Notes under the pieces: generated by a model | Databases searched by the model: none | The model's input: the letters and a program-made list of their open reading frames with translations, nothing else | Told to the model about the DNA's origin: nothing | Shown: one piece after another, positions 16,152-64,000 of the stretch | Layout of the letters: each line of letters starts with the position of its first letter | Position numbering within the stretch: position 1 is the first letter of the stretch | DNA from: an uncultured Muribaculaceae bacterium | Lineage (GTDB): Bacteria; Bacillota_I; Bacilli_A; RF39; UBA660 | DNA length: 64,000 bases | Direction of reading: 5' to 3' | NCBI GenBank assembly: GCA_964629735.1 | Contig: CAZVQX010000003.1 | Span: 6,387 to 70,386, forward strand | Program-made: the position numbers and the translations under genes

Positions 16152-16162
16152 AATTTAAAAAA

Positions 16163-18528: not shown

Positions 18529-18623
18529 AATAATGTCTAAAATTGCTATTCTTTTTTTCACTAATCGACATAATGTTTACACATATTAAAATATAATGTG
18601 AATATATTAAAACAGGTGAAATT

Positions 18624-20144: not shown

Positions 20145-20246
20145 AAAACACCTCTTTAACTATATTGTGTAAATAAAACTAAAAAATATACAAAATACTT
20201 TCTTTTTAAAAAAATATAATATATAATATAAATAGGAGGTATGTAT

Positions 20247-20795
20247 ATGGGTTGGATAATTTTAGGTGTTCTTATTGTTTTAATCTTAATATTTATTGTT
20301 AGTACATATAATGGCTTAGTAAAATTAAGAAATTTAGTAAAGGATCAATGGTCACAGGTAGATGTTCTATTAAAAAGAAGGGCTGATCTTATACCGAATA
20401 TTGTTGAAACGGTAAAAGGATATGCTGGTCATGAAAAAGAAACTTTAGAAGCTGTTATTAATGCTCGTAATAAGGCAGTTAGTTCAACAACAACTGAAGA
20501 TGAAATTAAGGCTAATGGTGAATTAACGCAAGCCCTAGGGCGTTTGTTTGCACTGACAGAAGCCTATCCAGAATTAAAGGCTAATGCTAATTTTACACAA
20601 TTACAAAACAGTTTAAAAGAAACAGAAGATAAAATAGCATATGCTAGACAATTTTATAACGATGCTGTTTTAGGATACAAAAATAAATTAGAGATGTTTC
20701 CATCAAATATTGTAGCATCAATGTTTAACTTTAAACCTGAAGCTTTCTTTGAAGCAACAGAAGCTGAAAAAGAAGCTCCACAAGTTAAATTTTAG
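20247..20795 (+). CDS. lemA: LemA family protein
   Basis: N-terminal TM plus a LemA domain. RBS AGGAGG. Confidence 0.9.
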   Translation: MGWIILGVLIVLILIFIVSTYNGLVKLRNLVKDQWSQVDVLLKRRADLIPNIVETVKGYAGHEKETLEAVINARNKAVSSTTTEDEIKANGELTQALGRLFALTEAYPELKANANFTQLQNSLKETEDKIAYARQFYNDAVLGYKNKLEMFPSNIVASMFNFKPEAFFEATEAEKEAPQVKF

Positions 20796-20837
20796 GCTTA
20801 CAGTTGTAAGTCTTTTTTTACAAGGGAGTGAGATATA

Positions 20838-22772: not shown

Positions 22773-22819
22773 AATAATTATAATGGAAAAAAAGATATTG
22801 GTTATCAATCAATATCTTT

Positions 22820-23149
22820 TTATATTATTTGAAAGTCTGAATTGTTAAAATTGTTTTTATAAGGTTGTTTTGTTGTATTCATCATATTTTCTAAACTATT
22901 AATACGCCTTTCAATATTTTCAAGACGACGATTTAGATTATTAACTTCTTGTTGTAACATATATAATTGATCATTTTTGGCAATAGACTGACTTGTTGTT
23001 TGTGGCCCCATCATCTGTTGCCCGGGCATCATTGTTTGTGGCCCCATCATCGGTTGCCCGGTTATCATTGGCTGCGTTCCCATCATCGGTTGCCCCATTC
23101 CTTGATATATTGGATATGGTGGCATTCCATAGTTTCGATCATTTTTCAA
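22820..23149 (-). CDS. Met/Gln/Pro-rich repeat protein with a C-terminal coiled coil
   Basis: Four or five GQPMMG(P/T)Q(T/P)M repeats followed by a heptad region NNLNRRLENIERRINSLEN. Confidence 0.45.
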   Translation of the reverse strand: MKNDRNYGMPPYPIYQGMGQPMMGTQPMITGQPMMGPQTMMPGQQMMGPQTTSQSIAKNDQLYMLQQEVNNLNRRLENIERRINSLENMMNTTKQPYKNNFNNSDFQII

Positions 23150-23262
23150 GTAAACTCACTCCTTTATACTTCCATTATATATATATGCTTTTTTTGTTAA
23201 GATGTGCTTATAACTATTTATCAATTTTTAAATTCATGATATAATTACAATGAGGGGATGAA

Positions 23263-23901
23263 ATGAGACTTCGTAGAGTAAAAAATGCTGAAAAAATAAT
23301 AAATGATAATAAATATGTTGTTAAAGATCCGCTATTATATTGCGGGGAGTATAAACAATTGTTTGCTAATAATAATCCAATAAGATTAGAAATAGGTATG
23401 GGAAAAGGTCAATTTTTAATTAATATGGCAATAAAATATCCGAATATTAATTTCATTGGAATTGAAAAACAAGCAAGTGTTTTAGTTCGCGCTGTTGAAA
23501 AAGTAGAAAATTTAGAGTTAAATAATTTATTATTTATTAATAGTGATGCGAATAAAATTAATGAGATTTTTGTTAAAGAAATTGAATTAATTTATTTGAA
23601 TTTTTCAGATCCATGGCCTAAAAAGAAGCACGCTAAGAGACGATTAACTAGCATAAATTTTTTAAAAAAATATGATAATATCTTTTTAGAAGATAAAATT
23701 ATTATTATGAAAACTGATAATCGTCATTTGTTTGAGGGTTCTATTGTTAGTTTAAATAATTATGAATATTTAATTGAAGAAATTTGTTTAGATTTACATC
23801 AGGATCAAGATATCAATAATATTATGACTGAATATGAAGAAAAATTTATAAGTCTTGGTTTTCCTATATACAAATTAGTAGCTAAAAAGACAAAATCTTG
23901 A
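23263..23901 (+). CDS. trmB: tRNA (guanine-N7)-methyltransferase
   Basis: IGMGKGQFL SAM motif and FSDPWPKKKH. Confidence 0.92.
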   Translation: MRLRRVKNAEKIINDNKYVVKDPLLYCGEYKQLFANNNPIRLEIGMGKGQFLINMAIKYPNINFIGIEKQASVLVRAVEKVENLELNNLLFINSDANKINEIFVKEIELIYLNFSDPWPKKKHAKRRLTSINFLKKYDNIFLEDKIIIMKTDNRHLFEGSIVSLNNYEYLIEEICLDLHQDQDINNIMTEYEEKFISLGFPIYKLVAKKTKS

Positions 23902-24590: not shown

Positions 24591-25310
24591 ATGGGTTTTT
24601 TTGATAAAATTAAAAATTTATTTACTGATGAACCAGAAGAGCCAATAAAAAAAGAATTTATTCCAGTTGAAATTGCTTCCCCTAAAATAGAAGAATCTAA
24701 AACTGACATAAATATAAGTGATTCAACAGTTATTCAAAAGGTTGAAAAAATACAATCACCTGTGTTTTTTAGTGATAAAGATTTTGAGGATCTTAATAAT
24801 AGATCTTTTCATCGTCATAGTCGGATGGATTTTCCAAAAGACAAAAAAGAAGAAAAAAAGGAAGAAACTCGTGTTTTTAAACCATCTCCGATTATCTCGC
24901 CAGTATATGGTGTTTTAGATAAAAATTATCGTAAAGATGATATTATAAAGAATAAACCTATCAATATAAATAATTCACAAGTGACAAAAGAAATATCAAT
25001 TGATGATGTTCGTAAAAAGGCATATGGAACTTTAGAAGAAGAATTAGAAAAAGAAATGTTTGGTGGCACTTCAATGTTGTTTAAGGAAGATTTAATTATT
25101 GAGGAAGAGCCTGATTTGTTTGAAGAGCTGAAGAATAAAGATGAAATATTAATCCATAATATAGATGAAATAAATGAAGATAGTATTGATACGTTCGTTG
25201 AGGATGAAATAGTAAATATGTTTGATAATGATGACGATCAATTAACGGAAGGTGATTTATTTGATTTAGTTAATTCGATGTATGAAAAAGGAGATGAAAT
25301 AAATGAATAA
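24591..25310 (+). CDS. Acidic hypothetical protein
   Basis: N-terminal MGFFDKIKNLF, an SPIISPVYG motif and a Glu/Asp-rich C-terminus. Confidence 0.45.
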   Translation: MGFFDKIKNLFTDEPEEPIKKEFIPVEIASPKIEESKTDINISDSTVIQKVEKIQSPVFFSDKDFEDLNNRSFHRHSRMDFPKDKKEEKKEETRVFKPSPIISPVYGVLDKNYRKDDIIKNKPININNSQVTKEISIDDVRKKAYGTLEEELEKEMFGGTSMLFKEDLIIEEEPDLFEELKNKDEILIHNIDEINEDSIDTFVEDEIVNMFDNDDDQLTEGDLFDLVNSMYEKGDEINE

Positions 25311-25605
25311 TTGTGTTAATGGTGTTAATAGTGTTTTTCCTAGCATAATCTATATATTATTAGCAATATTATTAGTAGTATTGATTATACTAGTATTAAG
25401 ATTAATTAAGACTTTAGGGAAAGTTGATCGGGTAGTTGAAGACGTTAATTATAAAGTCAATAAATTAAATGGTGTTTTTGAAATAATTGATACAACAACA
25501 GATGCCTTTGTATCATTTAATGATCGAATAGTTAATTTTTTAACTAATGGTATTGTTAAAATTTTTAAAAAAAACAAAAAGAAAGAGAGGAAATATGATG
25601 AGTAA
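25303..25605 (+). CDS. DUF948 (YtxG-like) membrane protein
   Basis: N-terminal TM followed by a helical domain. Precedes a YtxH-like gene. Confidence 0.55.
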   Translation: MNNCVNGVNSVFPSIIYILLAILLVVLIILVLRLIKTLGKVDRVVEDVNYKVNKLNGVFEIIDTTTDAFVSFNDRIVNFLTNGIVKIFKKNKKKERKYDE

Positions 25606-26014
25606 AAAGAAAAAAGGATTTTGTAGATTTTTAACTGGCATGTTTGTAGGAGCAGGTCTTGGTGTTCTATTTGCACCTAAAAAAGGTAGTGAAACAAGAA
25701 AAGAATTAAAAATGAAATTTGATGAGTTTATGGATGAGATAAAGCAAATAGATGTTGATGAAGTACGCGAAAATATCGAAACTAAAATTTTTGAAATAAA
25801 GATGGAATTAGAAGATTTAGACAAAGAAAAGATTTTAAAAATTGCCAAGAAAAAAGCAAATGACATTAAAAATATGACAGAAGATTTAGTTGAATATGCA
25901 GTAGAAAAAGGAACTCCAGTTTTAGAAGATATGGCTAACTCTATTCGTGAAAAAGCTATTCAAGTTACAAAAGAAGTACTAGAAAAATTAGAAACAAATG
26001 AAAAAGAAGCTTAA
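25595..26014 (+). CDS. YtxH-like protein
   Basis: Hydrophobic N-terminus FLTGMFVGAGLGVLFAPKKG followed by a coiled coil. RBS GAGAGG. Confidence 0.55.
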   Translation: MMSKKKKGFCRFLTGMFVGAGLGVLFAPKKGSETRKELKMKFDEFMDEIKQIDVDEVRENIETKIFEIKMELEDLDKEKILKIAKKKANDIKNMTEDLVEYAVEKGTPVLEDMANSIREKAIQVTKEVLEKLETNEKEA

Positions 26015-26026
26015 TTGCTTCTTTTT

Positions 26027-26536
26027 TTATAAATAAAACTCATTAATGTTTGTTGTGAAATAATCACTATTGTTGGTTATTTCATATATTTTTTTAAAAT
26101 TTTCAATAATCAATTTGTCGTTCTCATAATTATTAATAATATCTGATAGTGAAATAATACCTTTAACCTTTTTATTATTAGTTACAATTAACCTTTTTAT
26201 TTTTTTCTCTCCCATCAATTTAATAGCATCTTCAATTTTTTTATTTATATCAATATTTATTATATTTTTTGTAATATAACTTTTTATTGAATTGCTACTT
26301 GTTTCATTATTGCTTAAACAATTAATAACAATATCACGGTCGGTAATTACTCCAACTATTTTATTATTTTCAACAATAGGAATAAAACCAATATTATAGT
26401 CTTGCATTAATTTACTAATTTCAAAAATGTTATTATTAATATTTCCTACAATAATATTTTTAGTCATTATATTTTCTAGCATCATATTATCACCCTTAAT
26501 ATTGTTCTCTAAAAATAAATTACTATACATATTCAT
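26027..26536 (-). CDS. CBS domain pair protein
   Basis: Two CBS domains (GFIPIVENNKIVGVITDRD and KRLIVTNNKKVKGIISLSD). Confidence 0.8.
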   Translation of the reverse strand: MNMYSNLFLENNIKGDNMMLENIMTKNIIVGNINNNIFEISKLMQDYNIGFIPIVENNKIVGVITDRDIVINCLSNNETSSNSIKSYITKNIINIDINKKIEDAIKLMGEKKIKRLIVTNNKKVKGIISLSDIINNYENDKLIIENFKKIYEITNNSDYFTTNINEFYL

Positions 26537-26556
26537 ATAATTTTATAGGTGGTATT

Positions 26557-27309
26557 ATGAGAAAAATAAGATTAAGAAAAAAATACAAAATGAAAAAAAG
26601 TAATATAATAATAATAATAATAACTTTATTAATCATAACTATTTTTTATACTTTTAAATATTTAAATAATATTGTAAGTCCGATTTTAATTAATTATGCT
26701 GAAGTTGAAATAAAACGATTTTCAAATTTAATTGTTAATAAAGCTATTAGTAATTATATTAATGATGATATTAATGTTGACAATTTATTTATTATAACAA
26801 GGGATGGCCAAGATGAAATAAAAACAATTGATTTTAATCCTATTATAGTAAATAAATTATTAACAACAATTACTGATTCAGTTCATGTTAATTTAAAAAA
26901 TATTATAAGAGGGAATGTTGATAAAATCGATATAATTGATGATTTAGCAGATTATGATGAAAAAAAATTAAAAGATGGTATTATTTTTGAAATACCAGCC
27001 GGTGTTGTTTTCAAAAATCCACTCTTATCTAATATCGGCCCTAAAATACCAGTCCGTTTAAATTTAAATGGCGAAGTAATTAGTAATATAAACACAAAAG
27101 TAACAAATTATGGAATTAATAATGCTTTAATGGAAGTAAGTGTTAACATTGAATTAAGTGAGCAAGTAATCCTTCCTTTTTTATCAAAAAAAATTGATTA
27201 TAATTTAAATGTTCCAATTGCCATTAAAATGATTCAAGGAACGGTCCCTAATTATTTCTTTAATGGGATAACGAAAAGTTCACCAAATATCTCTCTTCCT
27301 ATAGAATAA
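26557..27309 (+). CDS. yunB: Sporulation protein YunB-like
   Basis: N-terminal TM; family-level resemblance to YunB only. Confidence 0.5.
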   Translation: MRKIRLRKKYKMKKSNIIIIIITLLIITIFYTFKYLNNIVSPILINYAEVEIKRFSNLIVNKAISNYINDDINVDNLFIITRDGQDEIKTIDFNPIIVNKLLTTITDSVHVNLKNIIRGNVDKIDIIDDLADYDEKKLKDGIIFEIPAGVVFKNPLLSNIGPKIPVRLNLNGEVISNINTKVTNYGINNALMEVSVNIELSEQVILPFLSKKIDYNLNVPIAIKMIQGTVPNYFFNGITKSSPNISLPIE

Positions 27310-27354
27310 TAGCAATAAATATGTTATACTAATCGAGTAAAAGGTGATAAAAAT

Positions 27355-29061
27355 ATGATAAAAAGCCAGAGAAAATTAAATGTAAAAAGATTCGCTATAT
27401 TGATTTTATTTATCATTGTATTACTTGTCGCTGTTCCTGCATGTGTGAAAAAAACAGGATCAATAATAAATGAAAAAAACGACAAATTTATTGCTAGCAG
27501 TGACATTGAAGTTAAACTTTATAATGAAAATTTTCAAGAATTAGGAACTGTTGCTAGGGGGATGAAAGTGACTAGTTATAACAGAGTGATAAAAGGGAAT
27601 GATAAAAGAATTTTCAGGAAAATTAAATTTAATAAAAAAATATATTTAATTGATGAAAGAAACTTAGTTGATAAACAAAAAGATATTGTTTTAGAAAAAG
27701 AGATGTATGTTAGGACACCTGCAACCATTTATAAGAGCGAAAAAGATAGCATTATTTTGTCAATGGTAAAAAAAGGTGAAAAATTAGAAATTATCGACTT
27801 TGATAAAATAGATAATAAAGGCTATGTACACAAGTATAAAATAAAATATAATGATGTTGTGGGTTATGTTTACGGTAAATATTTAGTAAATAATAAAGAA
27901 ATAAGCCTTAAGCATTATGATGAAGAAAAAACATATTTAATACATAAAAATAGAGGTAATACTTTAGGTGGTGGCTCAGCTGCTAATTTAGATTTTTATC
28001 CAAATGTTAAACCTCAATTTTCTCAAAATGTTATGCCAAAAGAAGTTCGTAGTTTATATTTAAATACAGGTGTTATAAATAAAATTGACGAATATATTAA
28101 ATTAGCTAAAGAATCAAATATTAATGCATTTGTAGTTGATATTAAAGATAATATGTCACCAGGTTATGATTCACAAGTTATGAAAAAATATTCGCCAACT
28201 AATTATAAATATGCTAATAATAGTTTTGATAGTTACAAAGTAGGTATAAAAAAATTAAAGGATGCCGGATTTTATGTAATTGGTAGGATCACCGTTTTTA
28301 AAGATTCATATTTTGTAAAAGATCATCCTGAGAGTGCTATTTCTGATAATAAAACAGGTCAACCATTTCTTCATAACAACTCTTATTGGCCAAGTGCATA
28401 TGATCGTAAAGTTTGGGAATTTAATGTAGAGTTAGCAAAGGAAGCGGTTTTAGAAATGGGATTTAATGAAATTCAATTTGATTATGTGCGTTTTCCAGAT
28501 CGAGTTTATAAATTAGAATTAGACGGATTGATAAATATGAAAAATAAGTATAATGAAGAAAAAGCCCAGGCTATTCAAGGATTTTTAATGTACGCTACTG
28601 ATGAGATTCATCAATTAAATGCATATGTATCTGCGGATGTCTTTGGTGAATCAGCACATAATTATGTTACTGGTTATGGTCAATATTGGGGGGCAATATC
28701 TAATGTAGTTGATGTTATAAGTGGTATGCCTTATCCTGATCATTTTAATGCATATGAGTACGGTTTTAAAGAAGTTGTTTGGACTGTTCCATATAAACTG
28801 CTAAATTTTTGGGGGATGAATTACGTTGTAAAACGTCAACAAGAAATACCAACGCCAGCAATTGTCAGAACTTGGATTCAAACATATGATACTGGTAAAC
28901 GTCCTGCTGTTGAATACAATAGTGATCGAATTTATGATCAAATTAAGGGATTATACAATGCTGGTTTAACTGGTGGTTTTATGACCTGGAACTCTAGTTC
29001 AAGTCTAGCTAAATATAAAAGCGTATCACCTGCTTTTTTGAAAATAAGTAGGGAGGAATAA
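27355..29061 (+). CDS. Putative TIM-barrel glycoside hydrolase (DUF4015-like) with N-terminal SH3-like domains
   Basis: Signal/TM, two SH3b-like segments, then NINAFVVDIKD..FDYVRFPD. Confidence 0.5.
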   Translation: MIKSQRKLNVKRFAILILFIIVLLVAVPACVKKTGSIINEKNDKFIASSDIEVKLYNENFQELGTVARGMKVTSYNRVIKGNDKRIFRKIKFNKKIYLIDERNLVDKQKDIVLEKEMYVRTPATIYKSEKDSIILSMVKKGEKLEIIDFDKIDNKGYVHKYKIKYNDVVGYVYGKYLVNNKEISLKHYDEEKTYLIHKNRGNTLGGGSAANLDFYPNVKPQFSQNVMPKEVRSLYLNTGVINKIDEYIKLAKESNINAFVVDIKDNMSPGYDSQVMKKYSPTNYKYANNSFDSYKVGIKKLKDAGFYVIGRITVFKDSYFVKDHPESAISDNKTGQPFLHNNSYWPSAYDRKVWEFNVELAKEAVLEMGFNEIQFDYVRFPDRVYKLELDGLINMKNKYNEEKAQAIQGFLMYATDEIHQLNAYVSADVFGESAHNYVTGYGQYWGAISNVVDVISGMPYPDHFNAYEYGFKEVVWTVPYKLLNFWGMNYVVKRQQEIPTPAIVRTWIQTYDTGKRPAVEYNSDRIYDQIKGLYNAGLTGGFMTWNSSSSLAKYKSVSPAFLKISREE

Positions 29062-29062
29062 A

Positions 29063-29356
29063 ATGAAAAAATATACTATAAATAATTTTATTTATCAATT
29101 AATTGAAGATTATGATAATGGTTTTGATTATAATGTTGTTTTAGAAAAAATGACTGATTATTTTAATGATTTTGATTATATTATTGGTGATTGGTCATAT
29201 GGTAAATTAAGATTAAAAGGTTTTTGTGATAAAGATAATAAACTATATAAATCAATTAATGATATAAAAAGTAAGGATAAGTATATTCGGGAAATGTGTG
29301 CATATAATTCTAAATATTTTGTTTTAAAAAAGGAAAAAGATAATAAGAAAAAATAA
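29063..29356 (+). CDS. DUF1027 (YutD-like) protein
   Basis: FDYIIGDWSYGKLRLKGF core. Confidence 0.65.
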   Translation: MKKYTINNFIYQLIEDYDNGFDYNVVLEKMTDYFNDFDYIIGDWSYGKLRLKGFCDKDNKLYKSINDIKSKDKYIREMCAYNSKYFVLKKEKDNKKK

Positions 29357-29418
29357 TTCAAAGTTATTGTCTAAATAATGGCGAATTAAAATATAGAGAT
29401 AAATAACTTTGTGTTAAG

Positions 29419-29450
29419 ATAATCAAAATGAAAATTTTGATTATTTTTTT
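29419..29450 (+). terminator. Strong rho-independent terminator
   Basis: ATAATCAAAAT-GAAA-ATTTTGATTAT followed by T7. Confidence 0.85.
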
Positions 29451-29587
29451 GAAGTATTAATAATATACTCATGTATGTGTACTTTACGTTAGCTTGCATT
29501 AATTTTATATCAAAAAAAATAAAACAATGATATACTGTTGTCATAATAGGCAAATATTATTTTTTTGAATAAGGGTGGTATTATAAT

Positions 29588-30925
29588 ATGGATATAGATT
29601 ATTGTCGATTATCTAAAGATATAAATGAGTTTGGAAAAGATATATTGCAATTAATTAAAGCACAATATGAAAGTTCAATGTCAATTTCGCAACAACAATT
29701 TTTGGAAAAATTAACAACTTCAGATAATTTTATAGTGATAAATAAACCAAACAGTGAAGATGTTGAGAGGTTTGGTAAATTAAATGATAGTAACCATAAT
29801 ATTCCAAATGCTCCATCAGCGCATGGTGGTAGGGCCAAAGGCGATGGTAAGATACACATATATCCATATTCACAATCATTTAACAATTGCAATACATATG
29901 ATGATTATTTAAACTTATGTAAAAATCATCTTGTAGTTCACGAAATTTTCCATTATTTTATTAGACCAGATGCGGTGGAAATAAAAAACTCTGAAATATA
30001 TAATGAATTCAAACATTTTTTAACTGAAGGATTAGTTCAATATTACACTGAGACATTTTCAAAAGAACATAATTTAGTAATACCTAATTCAAACTATAAT
30101 TGGAATGTTAAAACAGCAAAAGACATTTTAAGTGTTTTTCCAAAAGGAACCGATTTGGATAAAATTGTTTTTCAAAAGAATTTTGTTGAAATAATTAATC
30201 TGGCCTATAACTATTCAGGAATAAACTTTGTTAACAATTATATTCAAGAGAAACAAAAATATAATTATTTAGAAACTATTATAATTGAGGCGGGAAGAGA
30301 AGCTAATCTAAATGAAATTTATGTAAATAAAATTGTCGATTCTAAGATGAGAGCTTACAAGAGTATGTCTAATCATGAACAAATTATTGAAGATTATCAA
30401 TATCAGATAAGTAAATTATTTAAAGATGAAAAATTACTAGCTAAATATAATGAAAAAGTAAAGCAATATAATCCAAAAGCATTTGAAAATTTGCAGAATA
30501 AAAAAAAGAAGGTTAAATCAGATTTAAATATAAAAGCTAAACAAACCAACACAAATGTAAATTTACACAGAGGGCCACTAAAAAGTGAGTTGCATCTTGT
30601 TAAAAAATCAGTTAAGGTGATTAATGATAAAAAAAATAAAGTAATTATGAAAAAAGAACCTCAAATTTCTAAAAATCAATCGGCAATCACTCATTTAAAA
30701 CTATATAGAGAAAAATTAAAAAATACTGAAAAACAAATTAATAATGTAAACAGCAAAAACAATATTATAAAAAAAGAAACGCCCAAAATATTAAAATTAA
30801 CTAATAATCCCAATAGTACAAATAAGGGATTTGTAGATATACTTATTTTAGCAGTTGTAACCGGTTTTGGTTGTGGAATAGGGATTGGTATAGGTTACTT
30901 TTTCTATAAAATATGTATATGGTAA
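29588..30925 (+). CDS. Tail-anchored protein with HExxH motif and a long Lys-rich linker
   Basis: VVHEIFHYF at about residue 118, a K/N-rich region from residue 280 to 400, and a C-terminal TM ILILAVVTGFGCGIGIGIGYFFY. Confidence 0.55.
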   Translation: MDIDYCRLSKDINEFGKDILQLIKAQYESSMSISQQQFLEKLTTSDNFIVINKPNSEDVERFGKLNDSNHNIPNAPSAHGGRAKGDGKIHIYPYSQSFNNCNTYDDYLNLCKNHLVVHEIFHYFIRPDAVEIKNSEIYNEFKHFLTEGLVQYYTETFSKEHNLVIPNSNYNWNVKTAKDILSVFPKGTDLDKIVFQKNFVEIINLAYNYSGINFVNNYIQEKQKYNYLETIIIEAGREANLNEIYVNKIVDSKMRAYKSMSNHEQIIEDYQYQISKLFKDEKLLAKYNEKVKQYNPKAFENLQNKKKKVKSDLNIKAKQTNTNVNLHRGPLKSELHLVKKSVKVINDKKNKVIMKKEPQISKNQSAITHLKLYREKLKNTEKQINNVNSKNNIIKKETPKILKLTNNPNSTNKGFVDILILAVVTGFGCGIGIGIGYFFYKICIW

Positions 30926-30984
30926 AGCGAAAACTTGATTCAATGAAATATTGAAAGTTTAATAATAAATGATTTTATTAATAG

Positions 30985-31016
30985 ATAAGCAAGACTCAAA
31001 AATTGCTTATTTTTTA
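30985..31016 (+). terminator. Rho-independent terminator
   Basis: ATAAGCAA..TTGCTTAT followed by T5. Confidence 0.7.
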
Positions 31017-31081
31017 TTAGTAATATTATAGAAATATAATTATAAAGATGTTATAATTATAATGATTGGAGTAGTGATAGA

Positions 31082-32186
31082 TTGGAATTCCATGAACTAA
31101 GAAATATTTATCATAATTATTTAATAAGAATTCAAGAGTTATGGAGGGCTCTTTGACTTAGATAACAAGAATGTTGAGTTAAAACAATTAGAAGAAAAGA
31201 TTAATCAACCTGATTTCTGGTTAGATAAAAGTAAGAGTGAAAAAATAATAAATAAATTTAATAATCTAAAAAAAACAATTAACTTAGTTTCGTCTTTAAA
31301 AGAAATAATTAATAACAATTATGAATTGGTTGAGCTTTTAAAAAATGAATATGATAACGAAATAAAAATAATGCTTGAGAGTGATATATTAAAAATTAAT
31401 AATAATCTAATTGAGATAGAAAATCTTTTATTACTAGATGGTCCATATGATAAATATGGTGCAATTTTTGAAATCCATTCAGGAGCAGGTGGGACTGAGG
31501 CTAATGATTGGGTGGCGATGTTGTATCGTATGTATGTGCGATATTTTGAGTCTAAAGGCTATGAAATTGAAATTTTAAATGAACAAAAAGGTGATGAGGC
31601 TGGCTTTAAGAATATTTCATTATTAGTAAGTGGTGAAAATGTTTATGGTTTTTTAAAAAATGAAGTTGGTGTACACCGATTAATTCGTATTTCTCCTTTT
31701 GATTCTAGTAAAAGACGTCATACTTCTTTTGCGTCTGTTGAAGTTCTCCCTTATTTTAATGAAACGATTAACGTTGAAATTAAAGATAGTGATTTAGTAA
31801 TTGATGTTTTTAGAAGTAGCGGTGCCGGTGGGCAATCGGTTAACACAACAGACAGTGCCGTTAGAATTACTCATTTACCAACCAAAATTACAGTAACATG
31901 CCAAAATGAGAGAAGTCAAATTCAAAACAAAGAACGAGCATTAGAAGTTTTGAAAAATAAATTATATAGTTTAGAAAAAGAAAAACAACAAAAAGAGTTA
32001 GATAATATTAAAGGTGGTATTGTTGCTATAAATTTTGGTTCTCAAATAAGGAGTTATATATTACACCCATATCAAATGGTTAAAGATCACCGTACTAATA
32101 CAGAAGTTAGTAATGCGTCAAAGGTATTAGATGGGGATATTGAAGTATTTATTCACGATAACTTAAAGCAAAGGAGTGGTAATTAG
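31082..32186 (+). CDS. prfB: Peptide chain release factor 2, join(31082..31153,31155..32186) with programmed +1 frameshift
   Basis: Frame 0 reads TTG-EFHELRNIYHNYLIRIQELWRAL followed by TGA. The internal SD GGAGGG sits upstream of CTT TGA C. The +1 frame continues DLDNKNVELKQLEEKINQPDFW...GAGGTEA..SPFDSS..GGQSVN. Confidence 0.85.
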
Positions 32187-43593: not shown

Positions 43594-43635
43594 ATGTGTA
43601 AACATTGTATAATAATATTAGAATGGAGGGGCTTT

Positions 43636-44901
43636 ATGGCGAGAGGTTTAAAGATACCAAAGCGCAAAAAAGATTCAATTACAGAAAAAATCAAAAAATA
43701 TGATAAACCAAAATATGTTTATATTCCCCTTATTTGTCAAAATGATACGAATATAACAGTTTTAGTAAAACAAGGTGATTATGTTTGTAAAGGAGATGTT
43801 ATTGCTAGAAGAAGAGGACATTTTAAAGTTCCTATTCATGCCAGTGTTAGTGGTAAAGTAATATCATTTGAAGAAAAATTATATATAACTGGGCAAGAAG
43901 TAAAATGTGTTGTTATTGAGAATGATTTTAAAGAACTTGTATCAACCAATTTTGAAGTTCCTAAACAAATTAATCATTATACGAAAGAAGAGTTTATAAA
44001 TATAATTAAAGATTCTGGGATTGTTGGTTTGGGCGGTGGTGGATTTCCAACATATGCTAAATATGAAACTAATGACAAAATTAATACATTAATTATTAAT
44101 GCCCTTGAATGTGAACCATATATAACTGCTGATTATATGTTGATTAAAGAAAAGTGCGAAGAAATATTAGAGGCAATAGACGCTGTTTTGAATATTAATG
44201 ATATTCCTGAAGCTATTATTGCTGTTAATAAAAAAAACACAGAAGTTATTGAAATTTTTAATACTTTTATTGGTACTTATATTAAAATTAAATTAGTCCC
44301 TGTCCCTAATATTTATCCAATGGGGTGGGAGAGATCATTAATAAAACAGGTGAAAGGTGTAACTTATAATAAAATACCGATTGAAAAGGGAATTGTTGTT
44401 AATAATGTTTCGACAATGTATGCGATATATGAAGCACTAAAATATGGTAAACCAATGATTGAACGAATTATGACAATTACTGGCGATATGATCAAAGAAC
44501 CACAAAATATTTTAATAAAGGTTGGAACACCGGTTAAAGAAATAATTAATTCAATTGGTGGTTATCAAGAGGGTGACGTAATTAGTCTTATTGCTGGCGG
44601 CCCCATGATGGGGGTTGCAGTTCCTTCGGATGAATTAATTACAAGTTCAAATTTGTTAGGAATTGTATTAATGTCATATGTAAGCGATGAACCGCCGACA
44701 GAATGTTTACGATGTGGTAAATGTGTTGAAGTATGTCCGGCTAAACTTTCTCCAGTTTTAATAATGGACAATTTTCAAGATAGTGACAAATTAACTGATC
44801 TTCGGCCTAAAAATTGTGTTGAATGTGGTCTCTGTTCGTATATTTGCCCAGCCAAAATAAGAGTTAGAGAATTTGTTATTCGCGCTAAAGAAAAGGTGTA
44901 A
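43636..44901 (+). CDS. rnfC: Rnf complex subunit C
   Basis: Two 4Fe-4S motifs (CLRCGKCVEVCP and CVECGLCSYICP). Start at MARGLK after RBS GGAGGGG. Confidence 0.9.
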   Translation: MARGLKIPKRKKDSITEKIKKYDKPKYVYIPLICQNDTNITVLVKQGDYVCKGDVIARRRGHFKVPIHASVSGKVISFEEKLYITGQEVKCVVIENDFKELVSTNFEVPKQINHYTKEEFINIIKDSGIVGLGGGGFPTYAKYETNDKINTLIINALECEPYITADYMLIKEKCEEILEAIDAVLNINDIPEAIIAVNKKNTEVIEIFNTFIGTYIKIKLVPVPNIYPMGWERSLIKQVKGVTYNKIPIEKGIVVNNVSTMYAIYEALKYGKPMIERIMTITGDMIKEPQNILIKVGTPVKEIINSIGGYQEGDVISLIAGGPMMGVAVPSDELITSSNLLGIVLMSYVSDEPPTECLRCGKCVEVCPAKLSPVLIMDNFQDSDKLTDLRPKNCVECGLCSYICPAKIRVREFVIRAKEKV

Positions 44902-44912
44902 AAAGGAGGCAT

Positions 44913-46346
44913 ATGATGAAAATTATGAAAGTTGAAGTAGGTCCTTATATAAAAGATAAAAATAATACTAATAAAATAATGAAACATTTACTAATCTCAT
45001 TATTACCTATTATTGTATTTAGTTTTATAAAAAATGGTGTTATTCCTTATAATAAAGGTTATATCAGTTTTTTTGAAATGTTTTATCCATTAATTTTTAT
45101 TATTACTGGTACAATTTCTACATTCTTAATTGAACTGTTGTATGCAAGATTTATTCTTTCTAAACAAAAAGCTCAATTAAAAAAATATATGATGTCATCT
45201 CACTCTATTTTTCCCGGACTTTTTCTTTCTTTGATTTTACCAATAAATACACCAATATTAGTTTTAATAATGGGCTCATTTATTGCCATTGTAGTTGGTA
45301 AAATGTTGTTTGGCGGATTTGGTAATAATGTATTTAATCCGGCTTTAATTGGATGTTTGTTTATATTATTAATATATGGTCCAATGATTGCTGGTCATGG
45401 TGGCTATTTAAATAAAATGGAAATTTCAACAACTAGTGCAACACCACTATCTAATATTTCATCAGTTGAAGGAATTGGTAGTTATGATAGTTTAGTAAAA
45501 CCGTATGGTAGTTTGTTAAATTTTGGGGTTGGAACAATCCCAGGTGCAATTGGTGAAACTAGTGCAATATTATGCTTAATTAGTTTAATATATCTTTTAA
45601 TTTTTCAAGTTATAAAATGGCCTATTCCAATAATTTATATTGGTACCGTTTTTGGAATGACTTATATGATTGGTAGCTTAAATGGATTATCGATTTGGTA
45701 TCCACTTTTTCAAGTTATGAGTGGTGGTTTGATGTTTGGGGCGGTTTTTATGGCAACCGATCCGGTAACAAGTCCTACAACTCCAATTGGTCAAATATTA
45801 TATGGCTTATTTTTAGGAATATTAACGGTGACAATAAGATATTTGACTTCATATCCAGAAGGCGTTTTAACTAGTATCTTAACTTTGAATATGTTTGTTT
45901 TTATTTTTGATAAGATTGGTTCAAAAGCTAGATTTAATTTTAATAAAGCAGTATTGCATTTTATTGTAGCATGGGTTTTAATTTTAGGCCTTAGTATATA
46001 TATCGGTAATAGTTATAAGAAAAATAATAATCAAAATGATAATAACTTTAAACTTGTATCGGTTGATGAAATAAATAAACAAACAGTATATGTTGTGCAA
46101 CAAAAAGCTTTTAGTGGTAATATTGAGGCTAGAATAATTTTTGAAAATAATAATATTCAAAGTATTGATATTATAAATGTTAATGATGATTATTATCCCA
46201 AAATTGCAAAAGTTAATTTTATAGATATTTTACTTAATAATCAAAAAGAAATTGAAGACGTTGATACCGTTAGTGGTGCTACAATTACATCGTCAGCTAT
46301 TAAAAATATGATCATTAATACAATGAGAGAACACGGAGTGCGATAA
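44913..46346 (+). CDS. rnfD: RnfD fused to an RnfG-like FMN-binding domain
   Basis: RnfD core with FMATDPVTSP. An extra TM is followed by VDTVSGATITSSAI, the FMN_bind covalent-flavin motif of RnfG. 477 aa versus about 320 for RnfD alone. Confidence 0.85.
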   Translation: MMKIMKVEVGPYIKDKNNTNKIMKHLLISLLPIIVFSFIKNGVIPYNKGYISFFEMFYPLIFIITGTISTFLIELLYARFILSKQKAQLKKYMMSSHSIFPGLFLSLILPINTPILVLIMGSFIAIVVGKMLFGGFGNNVFNPALIGCLFILLIYGPMIAGHGGYLNKMEISTTSATPLSNISSVEGIGSYDSLVKPYGSLLNFGVGTIPGAIGETSAILCLISLIYLLIFQVIKWPIPIIYIGTVFGMTYMIGSLNGLSIWYPLFQVMSGGLMFGAVFMATDPVTSPTTPIGQILYGLFLGILTVTIRYLTSYPEGVLTSILTLNMFVFIFDKIGSKARFNFNKAVLHFIVAWVLILGLSIYIGNSYKKNNNQNDNNFKLVSVDEINKQTVYVVQQKAFSGNIEARIIFENNNIQSIDIINVNDDYYPKIAKVNFIDILLNNQKEIEDVDTVSGATITSSAIKNMIINTMREHGVR

Positions 46347-46347
46347 T

Positions 46348-46440
46348 ATGAAAAGTAAAATAAAAAGTATCTTAGTGCTTACTTTAACAGCTTTAATATG
46401 TGCAATAATAATATATTATGTGTTTAAAATAATTAGTTAG
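46348..46440 (+). CDS. Unannotated 30-aa single-TM micro-ORF between rnfD/G and rnfE
   Basis: MKSKIKSILVLTLTALICAIIIYYVFKIIS. RBS GGAG 9 nt upstream. Could be a remnant of the rnfG N-terminal anchor. Confidence 0.35.
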   Translation: MKSKIKSILVLTLTALICAIIIYYVFKIIS

Positions 46441-46452
46441 AGGGGAGTAAAA

Positions 46453-47088
46453 ATGAAGACAATAAAAAATGGAATAATAGATGAAAATCCAACCTTAGTT
46501 TTAATGTTAGGTTTATGTCCAACATTAGCGGTTACTAACAACTTTGAGAGTGCATATATTATGGGAATATGTGTTTTATTAGTTTTATTATTTTCTAACT
46601 TCACTGTTTCTATTATAAAAAAATTAATCCCAGAAAATGTTAGAATACCGGTTTACATAATAATAATTGCTACTTTTGTAACAAGTGTCGAAATGTTATT
46701 ACAAAAATATGCTCCACCAATTCATGAGATATTAGGTATATATTTACCACTCATTACTGTTAATTGTATTGTTTTGGGAAGAGCGATTGCTGTTGCATCA
46801 AAAGAAAAGATTGGAAAAAGTATATTAGATGCAATAGGTATTGGGTTAGGGTTTACCCTTTCATTATCAATGATTGGTTTAGTGCGAGAAGTCCTTGGTA
46901 ATAATACTATTACTTTAATGAATGGTATCAGCCCATTAACTGGATATAAGGCTGTTTATCAAATATTTCCTACTACTGATTATTTTCCAATTGATTTTTT
47001 TCTAAAACCAGCTGGTGCATTTTTAACCCTTGGTTTATTCCTAGCTTTATTTAATTTTATTAAAGAAAAAAGGGGTGAACGAAAATGA
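46453..47088 (+). CDS. rnfE: Rnf complex subunit E
   Basis: NPTLVLMLGLCPTLAVT N-terminus, six TMs. Confidence 0.9.
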   Translation: MKTIKNGIIDENPTLVLMLGLCPTLAVTNNFESAYIMGICVLLVLLFSNFTVSIIKKLIPENVRIPVYIIIIATFVTSVEMLLQKYAPPIHEILGIYLPLITVNCIVLGRAIAVASKEKIGKSILDAIGIGLGFTLSLSMIGLVREVLGNNTITLMNGISPLTGYKAVYQIFPTTDYFPIDFFLKPAGAFLTLGLFLALFNFIKEKRGERK

Positions 47089-47651
47089 ATTTATTTAATT
47101 TATTTATAACTAGTGTTTTAACTAATAATATTATTTTAACTAAATTTTTAGGTATTTGTCCTTTTATTGGCGTTTCTAAAAAAGAAGAAAGTGCGATTGG
47201 GATGGGGTTAGCAGTAACAACTGTTTTAGCTATATCAAGTATTATTAATTATTTAATTTATCATTATATTTTAGAACCAACGAATACGACCTATTTACGT
47301 ACCTTAATATTTATTTTAGTAATTGCCTCATTAACACAAATAATAGAAATAATTGTAAAAAGTAAATTTCCAAAAATTCATCAGGCCTTAGGTATATTTT
47401 TACCATTAATAGCTACTAATTGTGCTATTTTAGGAATTAATTTATTGAACATAAATAATAGTTATAACTTTTTAGAGATGATTACTTTTACATTAGGTAG
47501 TGGAATCGGCTTTGCGCTAGTAATCTATATATTTTCAACGATTCGTGAAAGATTGGAAAAAATAAATATTCCAAAATGTTTTAAAGGAACACCAATTGCA
47601 CTAATAACAGCCGCTATCATGGCGCTTGTATTTGGTAGGTATTTTGGCTAA
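47085..47651 (+). CDS. rnfA: Rnf complex subunit A
   Basis: GICPFIGVS motif, six TMs. Confidence 0.9.
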   Translation: MNLFNLFITSVLTNNIILTKFLGICPFIGVSKKEESAIGMGLAVTTVLAISSIINYLIYHYILEPTNTTYLRTLIFILVIASLTQIIEIIVKSKFPKIHQALGIFLPLIATNCAILGINLLNINNSYNFLEMITFTLGSGIGFALVIYIFSTIRERLEKINIPKCFKGTPIALITAAIMALVFGRYFG

Positions 47652-47758
47652 TGGCTTATATTATATTAATAATTTTGATAGTTTTAACTATATATTTATA
47701 TAGTAAAAATAATAATTATAAAAATTGTGGTTCTTGTAAGGGGTGTAATAAATGTTAG
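47651..47758 (+). CDS. Unannotated 35-aa TM plus Cys4 micro-ORF, translationally coupled to rnfA
   Basis: MAYIILIILIVLTIYLYSKNNNYKNCGSCKGCNKC. ATG overlaps the rnfA stop (TAATG). Confidence 0.3.
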   Translation: MAYIILIILIVLTIYLYSKNNNYKNCGSCKGCNKC

Positions 47759-48024
47759 ATATATTAATAGTTACAGCTATTGCTTTCTTTTTAAGTGTTT
47801 TATTAGTAATAGTGGAATCTAAATTTAAAAGTGATGATAAACAAGAAATCGATTATGAAAAATATTTACCTGGCTATAATTGTGGTACTTGTGGTTTTAA
47901 TACTTGTCGAGGGATGAGTGACGCAATGTTAAAAAATCCTTTAAATTATAAAAAATGCCGACCACTACGGGGAGATAAATTAAAAGAGATGGAAGCTTAT
48001 TTAAGACTAAAAAAAATCATTTAA
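47752..48024 (+). CDS. rnfB: Rnf complex subunit B, N-terminal domain only (no ferredoxin domains)
   Basis: TM followed by NCGTCGFNTC, but only 90 aa; the usual C-terminal 2x[4Fe-4S] region is absent. Confidence 0.7.
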   Translation: MLDILIVTAIAFFLSVLLVIVESKFKSDDKQEIDYEKYLPGYNCGTCGFNTCRGMSDAMLKNPLNYKKCRPLRGDKLKEMEAYLRLKKII

Positions 48025-48764: not shown

Positions 48765-48819
48765 TAAATATATTTGTTTTTTATCAAATAATTTGTTATA
48801 ATTTACTTAATATTAAAAA

Positions 48820-49030
48820 ACGGTGACGAAAGATTAGTAACAAAAGTAATTATTTATAGAGAGTTAGTGTATGGTGAAAACTAATAATAATCTTTTGCGA
48901 ATTCACTTTCTAGTTTTATATTATATATAACGGTAACGCGTTTTAGTTATTTGAGAGTATAGACATTCTATAAATTAAGGTGGTAACGCGATCATTCGTC
49001 CTTAAGCTAAGAATGTTTTTTTATTAGGAG
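48820..49030 (+). promoter_or_regulatory. T-box riboswitch leader (Phe specifier UUC) of pheST
   Basis: T-box sequence AATTAAGGTGGTAACGCG. Stem I has an AGAGAG/AGTGTATGGTG distal platform and GAATTCA in the specifier loop. Confidence 0.8.
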
Positions 49031-60711: not shown

Positions 60712-60713
60712 TA

Positions 60714-60740
60714 AGAGTTTAACAACTCTTTTTTTCATTG
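60714..60740 (+). terminator. Rho-independent terminator
   Basis: AGAGTT-TAAC-AACTCT followed by T7. Confidence 0.75.
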
Positions 60741-60823
60741 GATATTATGTAAATTATTGATTTAAAACGTGTCGTGTGATAATATATATATAATATTGCA
60801 GTTGGTAGTTGGAGGGTGTTTTA

Positions 60824-63800
60824 ATGGCTATGAATAAAAAAGGTTTTACACTAGTTGAATTGTTGGCAATAATAATAATTATTGGTATTATATTAATAAT
60901 TGCATTTCCATTAATTAATAATGTAATAGGAACAGTAAGAAAAAGAACATGTTTTTTAAACACTAAATCAATGGAAAAAGCAGCATTAAATTATGTTGTT
61001 TTTGAAAATAAAAAACTTCCAGAATCAAGTTCAATAAATATACCTTTACAAGAGTTAAGAAATAGAAGATATTTAACCCCTGTATTAGACCCAACCGATT
61101 TAAAAACAGAATGTGATGGATATGTAAAAATCACAGAAGATAATGGTGATTATAAAACAGAAGGACATTTAGTATGTCCAACTTATTGTAATGCCGAAGA
61201 ATTTGAAGATGATACCAAAGAGAAAAATGATGCTTATTATTTTGATGGTGCTGATCCAAATAACTGGGTTTTATTTGGACGTTTTGATCAATCATCAGTA
61301 TATGGCCTTTTATGGCGAATTGTCAAAACCGATGATGGTGGTCGCAAATTAGTATTTGAGGGATTAGAAAATGGAGGTAATAATCCGCTTGAAGATGGTC
61401 GAGCATCATTGGGTGGTACAACAGGAATTCCTTATGATGTATTAGGTAATAATAAATATAAGAAAAGCAGCTTAAATGAAGCTTTACAAACGTGGTTAAA
61501 TAATATATATGTAATTAATAAAGATAGATATATTAAAAAGACAAATTGGCGAATCGGTGGAATACCATTTAACAACCCGACTAGTTTAGATACTTTTATT
61601 GAATTAGAAGGAAAGGATACGGAAACAGAATTTGGTCAATTCGATGGTTTAAGTGACTTAAGTGGTGTCGGTTTATTAAACCCAAGTGATTATATGTTAA
61701 CGTCATCAAATCCGGGCTGTGTAAGTAGTTATCAATTAGGAGGTTCTTTTAATCCATGTATTTATACAGAGACGGAATTGAATAACTTTTTATATAAAGA
61801 TAAATATCATTATTGGACGATGAATGCAAGTAGTGACACCGGAAATAAAGCATGGTATATAAATAATATAGGCCATATAACAACAACTTTAGCTAATTCA
61901 TCAATTATATCAGTACGTCCAGTAATTAATCTTGAAAAAACCTTACCATTTTTAGCGGGAAGCGGAACGATAGATGATCCATATATATTAGAAGATTATA
62001 TGATAAATATTAAAAACGCACCGATAATTACATTAATAGGTGATGGATCTGTTGTTGTTCGAGAAGGTGATATGTATTACGAAGAAGGAGCAACAGCATA
62101 TGACCCAGAAGATGGAGATATAACAGATAAAATTCAAATAACAAGTAATGTTAATGTTAATATACCTGGAGAATATCAAGTAGAATATAATGTAATAGAT
62201 AGTGATGGTAATAAAGCCCCAACTGTTGTTCGTCATGTAATAGTTTCCAAAAAAGAAAATCCAGTAATTAAATTATTGGGAGGTAATCCACTTAAACTAA
62301 CTTTAAAACATGAATATGTTGAACCAGGTGCGACGGCTATTGATCCATATTATGGTGATATAAGTGATGATATAAAAATAACCGGCCAAGTAAACACCAA
62401 CGAATTAGGTGTATATGAGATAACTTATAACGTAACAAACAAAGATGGAAAAAAAGCTGTTACAGTCGTTAGAAAAGTAATAGTAGAACCGCCACGCCCA
62501 GTTATAACCTTAAATGGAGACAATCCGACAAATGTATATGTAGGTGGTATTTATACTGAATTAGGTGCCACCGCCATTGATGAGATTGATGGTGATTTAA
62601 CCAGCCAATTAAAGAAAACAATAAGAAAAATAGAAATTGGTAAATCGCCAAAAGTAGAAGTAAATGAAGTAGTAGTAGATAAAAAATATAGATATGAAAT
62701 AACATATAGTGTAACTAATAGTTTTGGTGTTACAACAAGTGAAATAAGACGTGTATATATATTACCAGATGATGGTCCTAAAATAGAGTTTGTACCGAAT
62801 GGTTCAAATATTTCAAAGCAAAAGCATGAAGTACAAATAAATGTAACGAAAACTAAATATGATATAGATAATGACAGTTTAAAATATATGTGGGTTTCAC
62901 AATATTGGAGATTGCCATATAAATCAACCTTAGAAGATGTAATAAGAACGAAATTTACTAATAATAGTACAGTAAGTAAGTTAGGGACAACTGGTTTATA
63001 TAGGTTATATGCGATAGCAAAAGATATATATGGAAATACCACAATAAAAGCAACTAGTTATTATCGAGTTGATAATTCGAAACCGCAATTATGGTTAAAT
63101 GGATCTAATCCTCAAAGAATATTAATAGGAACCCCATATGTTGAACAGGGTGCTAGAGCATACGATAAATATTATAGTGGTAATATAACTAATCGTATTA
63201 AAATTACTGGCGATATTGATATAAATAATCCAGGTAATTATAGCGTGTTTTATTCAGTAAGTGATGATGCAGGTAATACAACCACAAGAACTAGGAAAGT
63301 AATAGTATATTTATCCCAACCCAAAATAACTCTAAAAGGTTCCAAAACTGAGAAAGTAATATTAGGACAAGATTATGTAGAACCGGGTTATGTAGCAACT
63401 GATGAAAAAGATGGTAACATAACAAATAAAGTTGTGGTAAGTGGAACAGTAAACCGAGATAAGGTTGGAACATATCCAATAACATATACAGTAACAAATA
63501 GTTTAGGAGAAACCACGACGGTTACAAGAGATGTAATGGTATATATACCTGAACCAGTTATTACGATAACAGGTAGTAACCCTTTAAATCATAAAGTGCT
63601 AGAAGCATATACTGATTTAGGAGCCACCGCTTATGATTTAATAGATGGAGATTTAACATCACGAATTCAAGTAAGTAGTAATATAAATACAAAAATAAAA
63701 GGTAAATATGAAGTTACATATAAAGTTACCAATAATAATGGAAAAACAACAACGTCTAAACGAGTAGTGAATGTATATGCACCAAAACCAGTATTAAAAT

Positions 63801-64000
63801 TGAATGGTGATTCATTTATAAAAATGTTTATAAATGATATCTATGAAGAAAAAGGTGCAACAGCAATTGATGAAATAGATGGAGATATAACTAATGATAT
63901 TAAAATAATAGGCTCAGTTAATCCATCTAAGGTTGGAACATATCAATTAAAATATGAAGTAACAAATAGTTTTGGTGAAATAAGTTATAAAATAAGAACG
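60824..64000 (+). CDS. Giant type-IV-prepilin-headed surface protein with at least 9 tandem DUF5011-like Ig repeats (3' partial)
   Basis: RBS GGAGGG. N-terminus MAMNKKGFTLVELLAIIIIIGIILIIAF is a canonical prepilin motif with Gly-1, Phe+1 and Glu+5. A globular N-domain of about 350 aa follows, then repeats of the form PxITLxGxNP..V..G..Y.E.GATA.D..DGD(I/L)T..I...G.V(N/D)....G.Y.(I/L).Y.V.(D/N)..GN. No stop occurs before base 64000 (more than 1058 aa). Confidence 0.8.
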   Translation, partial: MAMNKKGFTLVELLAIIIIIGIILIIAFPLINNVIGTVRKRTCFLNTKSMEKAALNYVVFENKKLPESSSINIPLQELRNRRYLTPVLDPTDLKTECDGYVKITEDNGDYKTEGHLVCPTYCNAEEFEDDTKEKNDAYYFDGADPNNWVLFGRFDQSSVYGLLWRIVKTDDGGRKLVFEGLENGGNNPLEDGRASLGGTTGIPYDVLGNNKYKKSSLNEALQTWLNNIYVINKDRYIKKTNWRIGGIPFNNPTSLDTFIELEGKDTETEFGQFDGLSDLSGVGLLNPSDYMLTSSNPGCVSSYQLGGSFNPCIYTETELNNFLYKDKYHYWTMNASSDTGNKAWYINNIGHITTTLANSSIISVRPVINLEKTLPFLAGSGTIDDPYILEDYMINIKNAPIITLIGDGSVVVREGDMYYEEGATAYDPEDGDITDKIQITSNVNVNIPGEYQVEYNVIDSDGNKAPTVVRHVIVSKKENPVIKLLGGNPLKLTLKHEYVEPGATAIDPYYGDISDDIKITGQVNTNELGVYEITYNVTNKDGKKAVTVVRKVIVEPPRPVITLNGDNPTNVYVGGIYTELGATAIDEIDGDLTSQLKKTIRKIEIGKSPKVEVNEVVVDKKYRYEITYSVTNSFGVTTSEIRRVYILPDDGPKIEFVPNGSNISKQKHEVQINVTKTKYDIDNDSLKYMWVSQYWRLPYKSTLEDVIRTKFTNNSTVSKLGTTGLYRLYAIAKDIYGNTTIKATSYYRVDNSKPQLWLNGSNPQRILIGTPYVEQGARAYDKYYSGNITNRIKITGDIDINNPGNYSVFYSVSDDAGNTTTRTRKVIVYLSQPKITLKGSKTEKVILGQDYVEPGYVATDEKDGNITNKVVVSGTVNRDKVGTYPITYTVTNSLGETTTVTRDVMVYIPEPVITITGSNPLNHKVLEAYTDLGATAYDLIDGDLTSRIQVSSNINTKIKGKYEVTYKVTNNNGKTTTSKRVVNVYAPKPVLKLNGDSFIKMFINDIYEEKGATAIDEIDGDITNDIKIIGSVNPSKVGTYQLKYEVTNSFGEISYKIRT

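Follow-up and report, generated by a model that had tools for sequence, protein, structure and literature searches.

A giant modular type IV pilin gene with lectin-like and Ig-like modules at the edge of a 64-kb bacterial chromosome fragment

Modular pilins, defined by an N-terminal pilin module bearing the IPR012902 motif, a short linker and at least one domain that is not pilus-specific (PMC8179133), are at present the explanation for the acquisition of new binding capacities by simple type IV filaments. A gene at the end of a 64,000-nt stretch of contig CAZVQX010000003.1 from an uncultured bacterium (hereafter the window) belongs to a giant family that raises two questions: how large a filament subunit can be, and whether bacterial prepilin signals, as in archaea, are also found on surface proteins that never polymerise. 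Translation of the window from an ATG at 60824 on the forward strand gives 1,059 codons without a stop up to base 64000. The encoded protein is a modular pilin in the sense of the definition above, and the gene for this giant, whose 5′ half lies in the window, is intact and under selection. The DNA carrying it is only 27–30% G+C, so a frame of 1,059 codons would not stay open by chance. Comparison with an ortholog from a metagenome-assembled genome (MAG) locus, L002, gives a ratio of nonsynonymous to synonymous substitution (dN/dS) of 0.19 for the whole gene, and we therefore regard it as functional under purifying selection; by part, the values are 0.11 for the lectin-like domain, 0.20 for the Ig-like array and 0.33 for the pilin module. 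An initial annotation had described a pilin-headed protein far above normal pilin size, with an array of DUF5011 repeats still open at the window edge, and this description holds. A second contig, L008 from ENA, carries the gene at 97.7% identity and extends the frame by about 120 codons past base 64000, in the module order of L002; orthologs run to 2,025–4,608 aa, and the downstream frame disruption that would have marked a pseudogene was not seen.

The prepilin head is encoded at 60824–60844 (forward strand, as for all parts of this gene and its control signals given below). The protein begins MAMNKKG|FTLVELLAIIIIIGIILIIAFP, with Gly-1, Phe+1, Glu+5, Gly+14 and Pro+22, and both the sequence and its relatives predict cleavage after Gly7. 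These are the hallmarks of a class III signal: a short basic leader ending in Gly, Phe+1, Glu+5 and about 20 hydrophobic residues. The Pfam N_methyl profile PF07963 scores 22.8 bits against a cut-off of 21.2, in agreement with the canonical prepilin N-terminus proposed initially, while NCBIfam TIGR02532 lies just under its threshold (14.8 versus 16.3 bits) and ComGC, GspG and related NCBIfam pilin models give weak, sub-threshold matches. The pilin module proper (aa 8–125; 60845–61198) comprises a hydrophobic α1-N segment, a long α1 helix, a small β-sheet and four conserved Cys. Structure prediction with AlphaFold for the first 409 residues (mean predicted local confidence, pLDDT, 79) gave a single long α1 helix at residues 10–60 (51 residues), a small sheet at 70–117, a low-confidence linker at 120–128 and a confident second domain at 131–390. 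With an α1 of about 50 residues lying on a small antiparallel sheet, residues 10–117 are, in the predicted model, a pilin fold. The family profile matches solved filament-forming pilins, the best being Streptococcus sanguinis PilE1 (E 1.9e-10). An alignment of 42 relatives at 23–36% identity showed Phe+1, Thr+2, Leu+3 and Glu+5 to be invariant, and Gly-1 and Pro+22 nearly so. Glu+5 of pilins is needed for assembly and not for cleavage.

Beyond the linker lies a module that the initial annotation did not recognise. Its single globular domain of about 350 aa resolves instead into the pilin module and a separate module of 270 residues, a DUF6273-type enlarged C-type-lectin-like domain (CTLD1; aa 129–398; 61208–62017), with the low-confidence linker between them. 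The DUF6273 profile PF19789 does not match the N-terminal 399 aa of the window protein even at E≤10; it is found in many of its homologs, and a second lectin-like domain (CTLD2) in the L002 ortholog scores 23.2 bits against a cut-off of 23.5. In a fold comparison, CTLD1 matched the only solved DUF6273 member, the N-terminal domain of the Thomasclavelia ramosa IgA peptidase IgAse, or ThomasA (PDB 9qa6; PMC12237041, PMC12402451). IgAse is otherwise a different protein, with a Sec signal, a sortase motif and an M64 protease for whose catalysis the N-terminal domain, which has no known ligand, is dispensable; neither the window protein nor its orthologs showed a protease domain. Within the window protein, conservation is highest in CTLD1.

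The remainder of the protein is a rod of immunoglobulin (Ig)-like modules. PF16403 (DUF5011, now Bact_surface_Ig-like, a 71-position profile) matches it in seven stretches with E 5.4e-122; a hidden Markov model (HMM) built from the window's own repeats recovers the same seven copies, and DNA repeat analysis finds seven in-register copies spaced 234–240 nt apart, apart from one gap of 585 nt. On this combined evidence, repeats 1–3 occupy aa 400–479, 480–559 and 560–651 (62021–62776) and repeats 4–7 occupy aa 754–833, 834–911, 912–989 and 990–1059 (63083–64000), the last being cut by the window edge. Between the two groups stands a 102-aa Ig-like insert module (aa 652–753; 62777–63082) with the motif SLKYMW...LYAIAKDIYGN, which is not DUF5011 and has no significant Pfam match; the L002 orthologs contain three copies of it, and in two relatives, P0124 and P0129, it alternates with DUF5011. 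The earlier count of at least nine repeats thus reduces to seven DUF5011 copies, all with a recognisable GATA.D..DGD(I/L)T core as first reported, plus one module of a different kind. Nor are the repeats near-identical in places, as had been suggested: the copies share 29–51% identity in protein and 60–74% in DNA, and no exact DNA repeat exceeds 17 nt. They are old and diverged and therefore no substrate for slippage or recombination, and the phase or size variation through internal repeats that had been envisaged is rejected.

Full-length relatives extend the picture beyond the window edge. Orthologs at about 73% identity occur in two MAG loci. The L001 gene has 1,751 open codons and runs to the contig end; the L002 gene encodes 2,025 aa and is collinear with residues 1–1057 of the window protein, with a single gap. 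Its modules run from the pilin module and CTLD1 through three DUF5011 repeats, an insert Ig module, five DUF5011 repeats and a second insert, and onward through DUF5011, CTLD2, a third insert and a last DUF5011 to a C-terminal glycine-rich domain of ALK/LTK type (PF12810, E 6.8e-43). Five further giants of 2,047–4,608 aa, with the pilin and CTLD unit at the extreme N-terminus, are collinear with all 1,059 window residues at 44–58% identity and carry 11–14 DUF5011 modules each. The orthologs weigh 221–489 kDa each. The distal ends of the giants consist of one or two glycine-rich domains or of long GLUG/Peptidase_M26_N-type repeat arrays; PF12810 matches the C-termini of L002A/B, P0177, P0180 and P0190 with E 6.8e-43 to 8.4e-97. 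This likeness to the ALK/LTK glycine-rich domain is seen in the tips of the orthologs and not in the part of the protein that lies in the window. All giants keep a basic leader of 5–11 residues, Gly-1, Phe+1, Glu+5 and Pro+22. In nine relatives with a complete C-terminus, the last 120 residues contain neither a sortase motif nor a C-terminal hydrophobic stretch (P0175, whose C-terminus is cut, and the window protein, whose C-terminus lies beyond base 64000, fall outside this check), which leaves the pilin head as the sole anchor and places the variable end distally. A profile search over 1.84 billion representatives placed 3,588 cluster representatives in the family at E≤1e-30. Among distant matches, a 657-aa pilin-headed protein (P0103) carries a GH18 chitinase domain (PF00704), so enzymes too appear grafted onto pilin heads in related sequence space.

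Variation at the distal end is best seen where giants stand in tandem. In L002, a 2,376-aa paralog (2748–9878) precedes the 2,025-aa gene (10001–16078), and over 5,044 nt their DNA is 99.86% identical, nt 60 to 5000 being free of mismatches. At about codon 1676 the likeness breaks off abruptly, one gene continuing with one and the other with two glycine-rich domains, and the last 83 nt are again shared. Judged from the sequences, the pair looks like the product of tip-cassette exchange or of a very recent duplication, though it may also be an assembly artefact; these whole tandem paralogs, identical at 99.86% over 5 kb, are the only recombination substrate found. A second tandem, in L016 downstream of ileS, rpmB, dnaE and frr, joins a 4,608-aa giant with a GLUG/M26_N-type tip (10001–23827) to one of 2,310 aa with a glycine-rich tip (24961–31893); there is no extended DNA identity between them, and two small lipoprotein-like open reading frames (ORFs) lie in between.

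Two further family members, neither recognised in the initial annotation, lie in the window itself. The first (10101–10991, forward strand), between nrdDG and the cardiolipin synthase gene, encodes a second modular pilin of 296 aa, MMKRNPNA|FTLVELLAVIIILG, composed of a pilin module and two DUF5011-like modules. Its head (MMKRNPNA|FTLVELLAV...) has Ala in place of Gly at -1; it scores 25.3 bits against Pfam N_methyl and E 5.9e-16 against PF16403, and matches positions 4–122 of the family profile with E 3.4e-28. The second is represented by its 3′ part at 1–792 (forward strand), which matches family profile positions 109–371 with E 2.5e-40. The whole gene, encoding 363 aa that start MNLSQLNKKMLTLIGIVVAV..., is found in Logan contig L018 (5561–6652). 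There, the degenerate head MNLSQLNKKMLTLIGIVV (NKKMLTLIG) has lost Gly-1, Phe+1 and Glu+5 alike, while the pilin-like module and the DUF6273-type lectin domain are kept; from its sequence, the product is apparently a pilin-derived signal-anchor protein. Since the three family genes differ at the head, three head states—Gly-1, Ala-1 and degenerate—coexist within 64 kb, and form a natural series for testing whether prepilin signals serve non-polymerising proteins.

Turning to how such a protein might act, we incline, without strong conviction, to view it as a giant modular minor pilin carried by a type IV filament, the machinery of which would be encoded at other loci; that it is displayed on a pilus tip or pseudopilus, as the initial annotation had it, is plausible. 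A prepilin peptidase, itself encoded elsewhere, would cleave after Gly7, and the hydrophobic α1-N would leave the membrane and pack via Glu+5 into a type IV filament, either a pilus or a short pseudopilus like those of Com or type II secretion systems. Because of its bulk, the giant subunit would be restricted to the filament tip, where a flexible Ig rod, estimated at tens of nm, would bring the lectin-like and tip domains within reach of a ligand that is likely to be a glycan or surface polymer. We infer processing and tip incorporation chiefly because the residues for cleavage and packing are invariant or nearly so in relatives of roughly 25% identity and in every giant. Several observations weigh against this filament reading. 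Of all parts of the protein, the pilin module is under the weakest constraint. Since a pilus gives reach by itself, there is no obvious need for a long Ig stalk on its tip, and no filament machine is known to handle subunits of 220–490 kDa. The tip assigned to the window protein is that of its orthologs, as its own C-terminal half was not recovered. The family genes, single or in tandem, are always surrounded by housekeeping genes, and the window and ten related loci, about 243 kb of fragments whose content says nothing about the whole genome, yielded neither a prepilin peptidase nor an assembly ATPase, a platform protein or a small major pilin. For the window, the initial statement that pilB, pilC and pilD are lacking was borne out: a Pfam survey of sizeable ORFs, Pfam tables for 50–60.7 kb and motif scans revealed no PilB/ComGA-, PilC- or PilD-type gene, and neither the window nor the family loci contain an A24 prepilin peptidase motif or Pfam match. 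A metagenome scan with the family alignment used the head pattern GFTLVELLA only and returned generic pilins, none of which matched past residue 170; an ATPase motif in 1 of 80 of these loci is accordingly an uninformative baseline.

The main alternative is a membrane-anchored fibrillar adhesin, which we consider possible though the less probable reading: the prepilin N-terminus, cleaved or not, would serve as export signal and anchor and never polymerise, and the Ig stalk would reach across the peptidoglycan to expose the lectin-like and tip domains. Archaeal non-pilus proteins that bear class III signal peptides would then have a bacterial counterpart. An N-terminal anchor, a long Ig stalk and a variable C-terminal tip are the layout of a wall-spanning adhesin; dispersal among housekeeping genes, the lack of pilus genes in the 243 kb of family loci, the presence of three members in 64 kb and the very large size of the family also fit. 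The third window gene is a case in point. Having lost Gly-1, Phe+1 and Glu+5, its product resembles a signal-anchor protein with the same downstream modules, so that the architecture can work as a plain membrane-anchored protein. A plain anchor, however, needs no Gly-1, Phe+1, Glu+5 or Pro+22, yet these are invariant or nearly so in the relatives and kept in the giants, and the complete pilin β-sheet module with its four Cys is likewise retained. A head under relaxed selection is exemplified by the degenerate paralog, and the heads of the giants differ from it. More broadly, and only tentatively, this uncultivated low-GC Firmicute lineage may have turned the prepilin signal into a general display route for surface proteins that range from about 300 to 4,600 aa, form one large dispersed family and bear lectin-like, Ig, glycine-rich or GLUG modules; the giants would be either the largest type IV filament subunits or a novel, pilin-processed fibril without a pilus, with tip cassettes swapped between tandem paralogs.

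Two other explanations are far less probable. DUF6273 joined to Ig-like domains is the architecture of tentaclins, phage C-lectin proteins that are hypermutated by diversity-generating retroelements (DGRs) and use a DUF6273-type lectin fold followed by Ig-like domains for binding (PMC10743442), and one DUF5011-rich match bears the JGI label tail formation protein. That the window gene encodes a phage receptor-binding or tail-fibre protein, or a DGR target, is nevertheless very improbable. The window protein has a pilin head as anchor, which is not a feature of phage tails, and shows no DGR, phage context or hypervariability: its neighbours are era, recO, DUF212, pheST and other housekeeping genes with no phage genes among them, the Pfam survey of the window revealed no reverse transcriptase, no template/variable repeat pair touches any CTLD-coding region, and the viral contig collection holds no relative. 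A phage or DGR origin is largely refuted by the missing repeat pair, the viral-contig negative and the strong conservation of CTLD1 (dN/dS 0.11). A decaying or chimeric ORF that is not expressed as one protein has fewer chances still. In its favour, the giant gene is fragmented in L008, which shows 35 indels against the window sequence, the break in four Logan assemblies falls shortly before the gene's start, and the L002 paralogs are suspiciously identical over 5 kb; the indels, however, fit the 1.26× coverage of L008, and the internal repeats are too diverged for mis-assembly. Moreover, independent orthologs are open for 1,751, 2,025, 2,376, 2,312 and 4,608 codons, and together with the whole-gene dN/dS these largely refute a pseudogene or artefact, as do the 1,059 open codons in low-G+C DNA.

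Set against known systems, the giant modular pilin has clear precedents for its parts. Modular pilins are themselves known, and their survey lists architectures joining N_methyl to IPR032179 (DUF5011) and to PF12810 (PMC8179133), the latter also being present on PilY1-type tip adhesins; our literature search found no paper linking DUF5011 with pilins. The closest described proteins are PilB and PilC, modular minor pilins of S. sanguinis type IV pili with a vWA and a lectin module, respectively (PMC8179133; PMC9934059). They share with the window protein a class III signal, a small pilin module, a short linker, a ligand-binding module and a monoderm host; PilB and PilC, however, are about 50 kDa and carry a single additional module, with genes that belong to the pil locus, whereas the giant genes form a dispersed multigene family outside any pilus locus and the incorporation of their products into a filament is predicted. 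The orthologs, at 2,025–4,608 aa, compare with 860 residues for the largest modular pilin cited in the survey (PMC8179133), and the giants are several times larger than any described modular pilin. Described modular pilins have one extra domain and are encoded with their machinery; the giants, of 220–490 kDa and away from pilus loci, place one lectin-like domain proximally and a second, with a swappable tip, further out. ETEC (enterotoxigenic Escherichia coli) CofB, Vibrio cholerae TcpB and GspK likewise have a pilin head with additional domains that force a tip position (PMC8179133), although with only one or two extra domains and genes that lie with their own machinery.

The anchoring also separates the family from other surface proteins. 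GspK of type II secretion lacks Glu+5, which the window protein keeps. In Gram-positive fibrillar Ig-repeat adhesins, the anchor is a C-terminal LPXTG/sortase motif and the binding domain is N-terminal. The giants resemble them in having a long Ig rod that projects binding domains from the cell and in their variable distal tips; their polarity is reversed, with a prepilin head as anchor and no sortase motif in the complete orthologs. The family also shows three poorly understood domains in settings new for them: DUF6273, DUF5011 and the bacterial ALK-type glycine-rich domain.

At the locus itself, a terminator-like hairpin with a T-run (AAGAGTT-TAAC-AACTCTT; 60713–60735), read from the sequence, closes the preceding DUF212 gene, and the giant gene therefore looks like a separate transcription unit. 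The consensus scan did not list this hairpin because it has only two G–C pairs. A candidate promoter of its own, TTGATT, 17 nt and TG-n-TAATAT (an extended -10; 60757–60785), was read by eye and scores under the threshold of the same scan, and a ribosome-binding site GGAGGG (60811–60816) has the ATG 7 nt downstream. Four independent Logan assemblies (SRR20818732, SRR25722605, SRR8925798 and SRR8925797) all end at 60744, which is 9 nt past the hairpin and 80 nt before the start of the giant gene; the shared end points to a repeat boundary or a structural polymorphism. In L008, positions 1–84 are unrelated to window 60745–60828 and resemble the region around the promoter of L002 paralog A, while its ORF begins MNKKG rather than MAMNKKG. 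This contig may represent a second gene copy, or else a strain that has the gene at another place. The breaks at 60744, the upstream region of L008 and the tandem paralogs together suggest that the window species has a second copy or is structurally polymorphic here. A look-up by neighbouring genes gave contigs that end at 60744 or stop short of the giant gene, and the L002 ortholog's C-terminal half, used as a query for homologs, gave more distant relatives only and no contig of the window species.

The window is otherwise an ordinary chromosome of a low-GC, spore-forming Firmicute, with recA, rny, nrdDG, gpr, spoIIP, yunB, prfB, ftsEX, the Rnf operon, pheST, murT/gatD, yqfD, ybeY, dgkA, cdd, era and recO. 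Its nearest RecA matches are from MAGs of Bacilli, Mollicutes or Firmicutes bacteria, and an identical RecA occurs in a sample labelled as a food metagenome. In another MAG (L006), a 406-aa relative consisting of pilin and CTLD (10001–11221) stands directly after recO in the order yabP-yqfD-vanZ-ybeY-dgkA-era-recO-X-glyS, the same neighbourhood as that of the window gene. That a short relative occupies the equivalent position suggests that C-terminal additions at a conserved site gave rise to the giant. Other relatives adjoin polA, leuS, dnaE, truB or frr. A conserved small accessory gene downstream of the pilin-headed genes was considered and rejected, the small ORFs there being mutually unrelated.

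Several features elsewhere in the window are of separate interest. The prfB ORF (31326–32186) lacks the N-terminal part in frame, and a +1 programmed frameshift site for the release factor 2 gene, CTTTGAC, lies at 31151 after a Shine-Dalgarno-like GGAGGG. A class B RNase P RNA was detected at 1135–1482 (310 bits) and a T-box leader upstream of pheS at 48814–49006 (98 bits). Finally, within the Rnf operon (43594–48024), an RnfD-like ORF of 477 aa (44913–46346) ends, as read by eye, in an FMN-binding, RnfG-type-looking sequence, …TVSGATITSSAIKNMI…, which suggests an RnfD–RnfG fusion.

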